Positions 41,700-42,322 of a stretch of DNA of 64,000 bases are shown here, piece after piece. A model generated the notes under the pieces. That model ran no database searches, was not told the DNA's origin, and saw only the letters and a list, made by a program, of their open reading frames with translations. The stretch's first letter is position 1. The number at the start of each line of letters is the position of its first letter. Source of the DNA: Escherichia coli O157:H7 (lineage in GTDB: Bacteria > Pseudomonadota > Gammaproteobacteria > Enterobacterales > Enterobacteriaceae); NCBI RefSeq assembly GCF_013167455.1, contig NZ_CP038328.1, one strand, 5' to 3'. The position numbers and the translations under genes were made by a program.

Positions 41700-42322
41700 C
41701 GAACTCCTCGCGCTTTATTATTATAAAAGCACAACACCTTTTATACTCATATTAATTAACGAAACACTGAAACAACTTGATTTATTCTTAGCTCAAATTC
41801 ACTTGTTCAAAAAGATTATATTTTATACCCACAACTGTAGCATAAATAATATTATCAAAAGTCAAAGCTGGGACTATCAAATTTCGCTCATTTTCAAAAA
41901 TACAACGTAATTTTGGCAATCATCTTAATAGCAGGATCTCTTATCGCATGTGAAAAATTTGTAATGATTAGACAATAACCGCGTTCATTTATCACGCGTT
42001 ATAAATGTGAAACTGGCTTCTTGCAGATGCTCTTAACCTCTACAGGAGGATTTATACCACCATTTCAGAACTATCATATTTACCTTAAATGATCATTTCA
42101 GCCATATAACACGCTCAACCTCACAAATGGTTTACACTGTCTATTGTTTGGGTAATTTAAGTAAGTCAGCTACGAGCAACCTTGAGTGGGTCGCCAGCAA
42201 TGGACTCAAACCCAATCAGGTGTTCAGATTGTTTCAGAATTGTATTAAAAACAATGTATTAAATAATCTGATAGCGTTTGGTCGTAGTGTGACGCAGACA
42301 GCAAGCTAATAAGGAAATGATT

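Follow-up and report, generated by a model that had tools for sequence, protein, structure and literature searches.

At the ends of insertion sequences (IS) and genomic islands, acquired DNA is known to capture the transcription of core genes: the native start is removed and transcription of the neighbor begins within the insert. Other described systems also come close to a long, AT-rich intergenic region beside an acquired gene, namely xenogeneic silencing by H-NS, the palindromic operators of transcription factors and the short, taxonomically restricted orphan open reading frames (ORFs) reported from intergenic regions of enterohemorrhagic Escherichia coli (EHEC), which have their own start site and in some cases signs of purifying selection (Neuhaus, Huecker; PMC4765031, PMC5597208). 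Here, we analyzed a stretch of 64,000 nucleotides (nt) from E. coli O157:H7 (contig NZ_CP038328.1), hereafter called the window, and in it the gap between an accessory pentapeptide-repeat gene and the divergently oriented core gene ybjP, which encodes a lipoprotein.

We found that this locus is closest to promoter capture, with the native start of a core gene removed and transcription beginning in inserted DNA, at both ends of an AT-rich island. It is unlike the known cases in that the island has no transposase, integrase or terminal repeats and is present in one copy at one site, and in that it is old, with two haplotypes about 20% apart. We consider it probable that the gap is the tail of this island, that the insertion deleted the core of the native ybjP promoter, that the half of the gap next to ybjP (Part B) replaces this promoter and that a palindrome noticed in the gap arose by chance. 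In about a fifth of E. coli, transcription of the core lipoprotein gene ybjP would then begin in acquired DNA and not at the promoter known from K-12. We regard the locus as a new example of a known phenomenon, resting largely on start-site data that were published but left uninterpreted, and not as a new kind of system.

The original prediction described a long (about 620 bp), AT-rich gap of acquired DNA between divergent genes, and this description was borne out. The gap measures 623 to 656 bp, depending on whether the accessory gene starts at the GTG at 41699 or at the ATG at 41666; the ATG, which has GGGTGA ahead of it, is the more likely start. Its GC content is 34.1%, versus 50.9% for the window and 53.9% for ybjP, and in a stretch of 40 kb of the Sakai genome it is the longest gap between annotated genes. 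The segment from 39300 to 42900 is 100% identical to that of E. coli strain 2017C-4109. Homology to K-12 ends at 39750 and restarts at 42305, which directly sets the boundaries of the island. In K-12, ybjQ and ybjP are 125 bp apart, and the island takes the place of 46 bp of this native intergenic DNA.

We then looked into the same locus outside E. coli, using YbjP as the query against one genome per species, which gave 54 loci, 50 of which served as outgroups. The short arrangement, likewise with a spacing of 125 bp, was found in Escherichia albertii, a cryptic Escherichia lineage, Salmonella, most Citrobacter, Klebsiella, Kluyvera and others, with a strongly conserved intergenic sequence (...CTATTATTGAAAGGATATCATTATTATCGTAGAAC...). 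No surveyed outgroup locus had any similarity to the gap. Because the outgroups carry short, conserved intergenic DNA without similarity to the gap, the empty site is ancestral. When compared with the upstream region of ybjP in K-12, the gap proved not to be the native sequence: its counterpart is limited to the last 18 to 33 bp, with weak similarity possibly reaching back to about 42290. This comparison indicates that essentially none of the gap is native and that ybjP lost its own promoter and start site to the insertion, which answers the question, raised by the original prediction, of how much of the region had arrived with the insertion.

The island was found in 1124 to 1128 of 5426 complete E. 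coli genomes, among them O157:H7, O55:H7, O145 and Shigella sonnei, at a single chromosomal site per genome and always between ybjQ and ybjP. Searches of the plasmid and phage collections gave no real match: three matches to the gap in "plasmid" records came from entries of 0.73 to 4.9 Mb, which are likely chromosomal sequences misfiled as plasmids, and the lone phage match covered 46 bp and was noise. The sole long ORF of the island is the pentapeptide-repeat gene, and neither terminal repeats nor a target-site duplication were found at its ends. The island is not recognizable as a mobile element, be it an IS, an integrative element or the remnant of a prophage: it has no terminal repeats, no recombinase gene and neither multiple copies nor multiple sites.

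Start-site data published for strain EDL933 place the transcription of ybjP directly in Part B. In that study, Cappable-seq was performed under eight conditions, and the start sites listed for ybjP (EDL933_RS04960, 1032320-1032835, minus strand) are 1033012 (exponential phase in lysogeny broth [LB], M9 and salt; stationary phase in salt), 1033014 (stationary phase in LB and acid) and 1033043 (exponential phase in salt; stationary phase in M9 and salt) (PMC10469882, start-site assignments and Table S5). The EDL933 gap is 100% identical to that of the window, where these sites correspond to 42146, 42144 and 42115, respectively, and the first two were jointly seen in six of the eight conditions. 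Their distances to ybjP are 177, 179 and 208 nt, compared with 56 nt for the K-12 start listed in RegulonDB (PMC10469882). This K-12 start, at -56, is inside the 46 bp that were replaced, and its -10 element, TATTAT, is interrupted by the junction with the island. Since the native start is lost and the mapped starts are in Part B, island-bearing strains transcribe ybjP from island DNA, with a leader of 177 to 208 nt instead of 56 nt. The hexamers TATAAC and TACACT, both invariant, would serve as the -10 elements of the distal and proximal promoters (Table 1).

The leader contains a hairpin more stable than all of its shuffled versions, whose arms were also recovered as an inverted repeat and whose variation among the common alleles falls in the loop. 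It is contained in the 3' portion of a 60-codon ORF discussed below, lies some 50 nt ahead of the start codon of ybjP and has no U-tract; the whole leader (42115-42340) is not unusually structured (z = -1.1). No intrinsic terminator was found in the gap, and when 39600-42500 was scanned with Rfam under a permissive cut-off, the best matches were eukaryotic snoRNA models, at 18 to 23 bits versus gathering thresholds of 43 to 45.

Table 1. Features of the ybjQ-ybjP region, in coordinates of the window
Feature	Position	Strand	Description
ybjQ	39366-39689	minus	Flanking core gene
Island	39751-42304		AT-rich, 2554 bp, 33.6% GC; in place of 46 bp of native ybjQ-ybjP intergenic DNA
Outward-facing promoter, left end	39772-39799	minus	TTGACA-N16-TAAACT; ybjQ start site at 39767
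Accessory gene	39900 to 41666 (ATG) or 41699 (GTG)	minus	Pentapeptide-repeat gene; from the ATG, 588 aa with a repeat region of ~100 aa; intact in the window
Gap	41667/41700-42322		Divergent intergenic region between the accessory gene and ybjP
Part A of the gap	41667-41989		30% GC; fast-evolving, indel-rich, upstream of the accessory gene
Predicted sigma-70 promoter of the accessory gene	41851-41880	minus	TTGATA-18-GATAAT, 10/12 positions; top match of the promoter scan
Imperfect palindrome	41986-42007		22 bp, CATTTATCACG and CGTTATAAATG, 10/11 positions complementary, no spacer; contains the 7-bp repeat
Part B of the gap	41990-42322	plus	38% GC; conserved; bears the ybjP promoters and leader
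Distal ybjP promoter	42105-42115	plus	Putative -10 TATAAC (42105-42110), invariant in all alleles; start 42115
Proximal ybjP promoter	42133-42146	plus	-10-like TACACT (42133-42138), invariant; starts 42144 and 42146
Orphan ORF, coding status uncertain	42127-42309	plus	60 codons, MVYTVYCLGN...
Leader hairpin	42224-42271	plus	-16.4 kcal/mol, z = -4.2; 0 of 200 shuffles as stable
Native remainder of the gap	42305-42322	plus	ybjP ribosome-binding site TAAGGAAAT and spacer; aligns to K-12 and all outgroups
ybjP	42323-42838	plus	DUF3828 lipoprotein; NCBIfam NF007824 (326 bits) and Pfam PF12883 match

The left end of the island shows the same arrangement with respect to ybjQ. The EDL933 start site 1035398, detected in stationary-phase conditions (PMC10469882), corresponds to position 39767 of the window, 78 nt upstream of ybjQ, and the K-12 start site of ybjQ, at -76, was also inside the 46 bp lost to the island. 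The outward-facing promoter at this end would serve ybjQ in the way that Part B serves ybjP. Thus, both island ends feed the flanking core genes, and at least one start site of ybjQ-amiD is likewise supplied by the island. Regulatory knowledge gathered in K-12 for ybjP and ybjQ-amiD, such as the start sites in RegulonDB, is not transferable to island strains.

We then compared alleles of the island from complete genomes and 51 metagenome contigs; for Part B, this gave 60 sequences and 19 unique alleles. Two deep haplotypes were found, the O157/P19 type (haplotype 1) and the E500002 type (haplotype 2), and the difference between them divides the gap directly at about 41990: 24% in Part A (76% identity) and 8% in Part B (92% identity), with 19% in the accessory gene and 5 to 6.5% in ybjQ and ybjP. 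Part A is 88 to 89% identical to the P19 and GF4-3 alleles and has 11 to 16 variable sites per 40 bp plus many indels, and no indel was found in Part B among the 19 unique alleles. Within haplotype 1, there are 0.164 polymorphic sites per position in Part A and 0.056 to 0.087 in Part B. The least variable part of the gap, with 5 variable positions in its 80 bp, is 42067-42146, which covers the mapped start sites. The Jukes-Cantor distance of Part A between haplotypes is about 0.29, and because this matches the synonymous divergence (dS) of the flanking genes (0.28 for ybjQ and 0.21 for ybjP), Part A appears neutral and of the same age as the flanks. Judging from this pattern, selection probably lies behind the conservation of Part B. 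In strain CUWW06 (locus L006, 2236-3000), an IS1 with an adjacent deletion has removed 39918-41989, nearly all of the accessory gene together with the whole of Part A, and left Part B whole.

As a separate observation, the CUWW06 deletion ends exactly at 41990, the point where the divergence between haplotypes falls. A TCACC motif beside this point is common to haplotype 2 and the end of the CUWW06 IS1; we consider it a coincidence, as the likeness to IS1, judged by eye, stops at these 5 nt.

The accessory gene itself is poorly characterized by similarity. Its product scores 34.7 bits with Pfam PF13599 (cut-off of 38) and 20.2 bits with PF00805, exactly at the cut-off, and its nearest solved structures are weak repeat matches. 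One database source labels the gene a putative type III effector; a full-text literature search found no paper on the gene and nothing to confirm that it belongs to the EspX effector family. The gene is frameshifted, split or truncated in Sakai (ECs0949/ECs0950), EDL933, TW14588, O145 RM9154, P19_598, GF4-3, N96, EC42405 and 2020CK-00188. Its decay is repeated and independent and extends to many non-O157 strains, while the adjoining Part B stays conserved. The -35 element of its predicted promoter is within the sole conserved pocket of Part A (41867-41906).

The original prediction also proposed the gap as a target of xenogeneic silencing. The high-affinity motif of H-NS is TCGWTWAATT. Part of the proposal is plausible for this acquired, AT-rich DNA, and its base composition and origin suggest that the accessory gene is probably silenced by H-NS, but no match to the motif, allowing up to one mismatch, was found in 41667-42322. 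Like known targets, the island has a low GC content (30 to 38% versus 51%), was acquired and carries a cargo gene that decays frequently and has no start detected in vitro; unlike them, it lacks the motif in the gap, and part of its AT-rich DNA is actively transcribed toward ybjP. For the accessory gene, no start site is listed in any of the eight in vitro conditions in EDL933 (PMC10469882, Table S5).

We propose the following course of events. An AT-rich insertion of 2.55 kb would have landed in the native divergent promoter region of ybjQ and ybjP and deleted its core, so that the gap would now consist of two units that meet at about 41990. Part A, upstream of the acquired pentapeptide-repeat gene, would be drifting and probably silenced by H-NS, and Part B would be under constraint as the DNA on which ybjP now relies. 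Under most conditions RNA polymerase would begin at 42144 and 42146, with 42115 used in salt and in stationary phase, and the resulting leader would hold the conserved hairpin and possibly a translated 60-codon ORF. At the other end, the TTGACA-N16-TAAACT promoter would likewise act on ybjQ.

Several points weigh against this proposal. There is no good -35 element at either ybjP start, and the distance of 4 nt from the distal -10 hexamer to its start is short. The start sites come from one study and one strain, and the authors of that study stress that many Cappable-seq signals are weak (PMC10469882). In EDL933, where the missing start of the accessory gene was measured, this gene is already broken, and the gap has no match to the H-NS motif. 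Furthermore, strain 2020CK-00188 is a mosaic with its breakpoint inside Part B, so the lower divergence of Part B could partly reflect history.

One alternative is that Part B is kept mainly for a real orphan protein of 60 amino acids (aa), cotranscribed with ybjP from 42115 with a short leader that lacks a Shine-Dalgarno sequence. The original prediction had stated that the gap contains no convincing ORF, which now needs qualification: a 60-codon ORF is open in most alleles and was formerly annotated in EDL933, and the evidence that it is coding is mixed. This ORF starts 12 nt past the distal start 42115 and ends 13 nt ahead of ybjP. The corresponding EDL933 start, 1033043, is also assigned to a minus-strand hypothetical protein, EDL933_RS04965 (PMC10469882), whose gene lay between RS04960 and RS04970 and has been dropped from the current RefSeq annotation. 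Between haplotypes, we counted 9 synonymous and 6 nonsynonymous changes, a ratio of nonsynonymous to synonymous rates (dN/dS) of 0.15 (Fisher's exact test, p = 5.6e-4); each of the other five frames has either a dN/dS of at least 0.35 or no synonymous difference at all. Upstream of the ATG, 30 further open codons have a dN/dS of 1.6, which fits this ATG as the start. The dS of the ORF itself, 0.29, matches that of the flanking genes, and the ORF is free of indels in the 60 sequences.

The same alternative meets with several difficulties. No Shine-Dalgarno sequence precedes 42127, and the more widely detected ybjP starts, 42144 and 42146, fall inside the ORF. The frame is open in 51 of the 60 sequences, with the stop K13* in 8 and Q37* in 1, and a count by site over the 19 alleles gives 10 synonymous and 19 nonsynonymous changes (p = 0.08). 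The ORF is missing from the small genes of the ribosome-profiling supplements for Sakai and EDL933 (PMC5597208, PMC4765031, PMC5331693), which is weak evidence. For the whole 90-codon open frame, a word-indexed search and an exhaustive phmmer search over 1.84 billion representative proteins found no homologue outside this locus, and Pfam, NCBIfam and PADLOC gave no match either; we rejected on the same ground the idea that Part B is a gene remnant. In comparison with the EHEC orphan ORFs, which it resembles in its short length, narrow distribution, own start site and partial signs of purifying selection, this ORF is outside the reported sets, has no Shine-Dalgarno sequence and has nonsense alleles in circulation. 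We therefore regard it as doubtful that Part B is maintained mainly for a protein, and treat the ORF as a concrete small-ORF candidate and not as a finding. A broader version, in which the island rewires ybjP and ybjQ-amiD through its own outward promoters and the salt and stationary-phase promoter also expresses the lineage-restricted 60-aa orphan protein, from a 12-nt leader without a Shine-Dalgarno sequence, strikes us as speculative and rather unlikely; if true, Part B would combine regulatory and coding functions in a young module that selection maintains and that is found in only about 20% of E. coli.

A second alternative is that the conservation of Part B implies no function and reflects history alone, Part B having traveled with ybjP by homologous recombination and coalesced later than Part A. 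The step in divergence at about 41990, the mosaic of 2020CK-00188 and the unusually diverged flanks (dS of 0.2 to 0.3) would all fit such a history. Recombination in 2020CK-00188 shows that history does contribute, but it does not explain why, within haplotype 1, Part B has two to three times less polymorphism than Part A, nor why indels, common in Part A, are absent from Part B. The peak of conservation is exactly over the mapped starts, and the distance of Part A equals the flanking dS, so Part A looks neutral and of the same age as the flanks, not older. History as the sole explanation appears very unlikely to us, and we keep to the view that Part B is conserved as the promoter and leader of ybjP.

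The last alternative, in line with the original prediction, makes the whole gap a regulatory leader of the acquired gene and a target of silencing, with an inverted repeat around ACGCGT as an operator. The string and its arms are exact: 41985-42007 reads TCATTTATCACGCGTTATAAATG, and the 7-bp arms CATTTAT and ATAAATG are present. The repeat is part of a longer 22-bp dyad between divergent promoters, as is typical for palindromic operators, which is intact in 54 of the 55 haplotype-1 sequences. However, by 1000 dinucleotide shuffles of the 656-bp gap, inverted repeats with perfect 7-bp arms and a loop of at most 10 nt were expected 0.78 times per shuffle and observed 3 times in the gap, so that the 7-bp repeat is at chance level. 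A 10/11 palindrome arose in 2.9% of the shuffles when the loop was limited to 2 nt and in 7.6% when it was limited to 8 nt; the longer form thus barely exceeds chance, in a test picked after the repeat had been seen, which makes it weak evidence. In haplotype 2, the left arm is CACCTATCATG, with three changes, which reduce the pairing to 7/11 with no compensating change; no variation occurs in the right arm, which is part of the conserved block. The palindrome sits at the boundary between Parts A and B, 108 to 150 bp from the ybjP starts (its center is about 118 and 149 bp upstream of them), and overlaps neither core promoter, the predicted promoter of the accessory gene being about 150 bp away. 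No further copy was found in the window, the palindrome was matched to no known motif, and the hairpin that it could form as RNA is unstable on both strands (z of -0.1 to -0.95).

Unlike known operators, then, this palindrome is not significantly above chance, has an arm that is not conserved in haplotype 2, is away from the core promoters and was matched to no known motif, and its role as a regulatory element finds no statistical, positional or comparative support. Most likely it arose by chance in AT-rich DNA and happens to lie at the A/B boundary; at most it is a lineage-specific site. As for the gap as a leader, its acquired origin, its 34% GC and the absence of a listed start for the accessory gene would be compatible with silencing, but half of it demonstrably serves ybjP: the conserved half faces the opposite way and bears the mapped ybjP starts, so the gap is not simply the long leader of the acquired gene. 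We judge this alternative very unlikely, and the locus illustrates that a long AT-rich leader beside an acquired gene may conceal a constrained unit oriented the other way.

Other insertions were seen at or in this locus. Four Citrobacter loci (L012, L013, L014 and L018) have unrelated insertions of about 3.0, 3.0, 2.1 and 1.5 kb, respectively, at the same spot between ybjQ and ybjP, which looks like an insertion hotspot across genera; the longest ORF of L012 (436 aa) may be similar to an acid phosphatase or phytase. In strain N4220121, the island contains an IS5 element. A contig labeled as a Collinsella metagenome-assembled genome (JAIJJM010000403.1; L056, 2972 bp) bears the E. coli island, with a Part B 98.8% identical to that of the window, and is almost certainly a binning contaminant. 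Finally, ybjP of the window is 90% identical to that of K-12 overall, with differences that cluster in the first ~300 bp (42323-42620) and a near-identical remainder. The dS of ybjQ and ybjP between island haplotypes, 0.2 to 0.3, is high for E. coli core genes and suggests old, linked haplotypes around the insertion.

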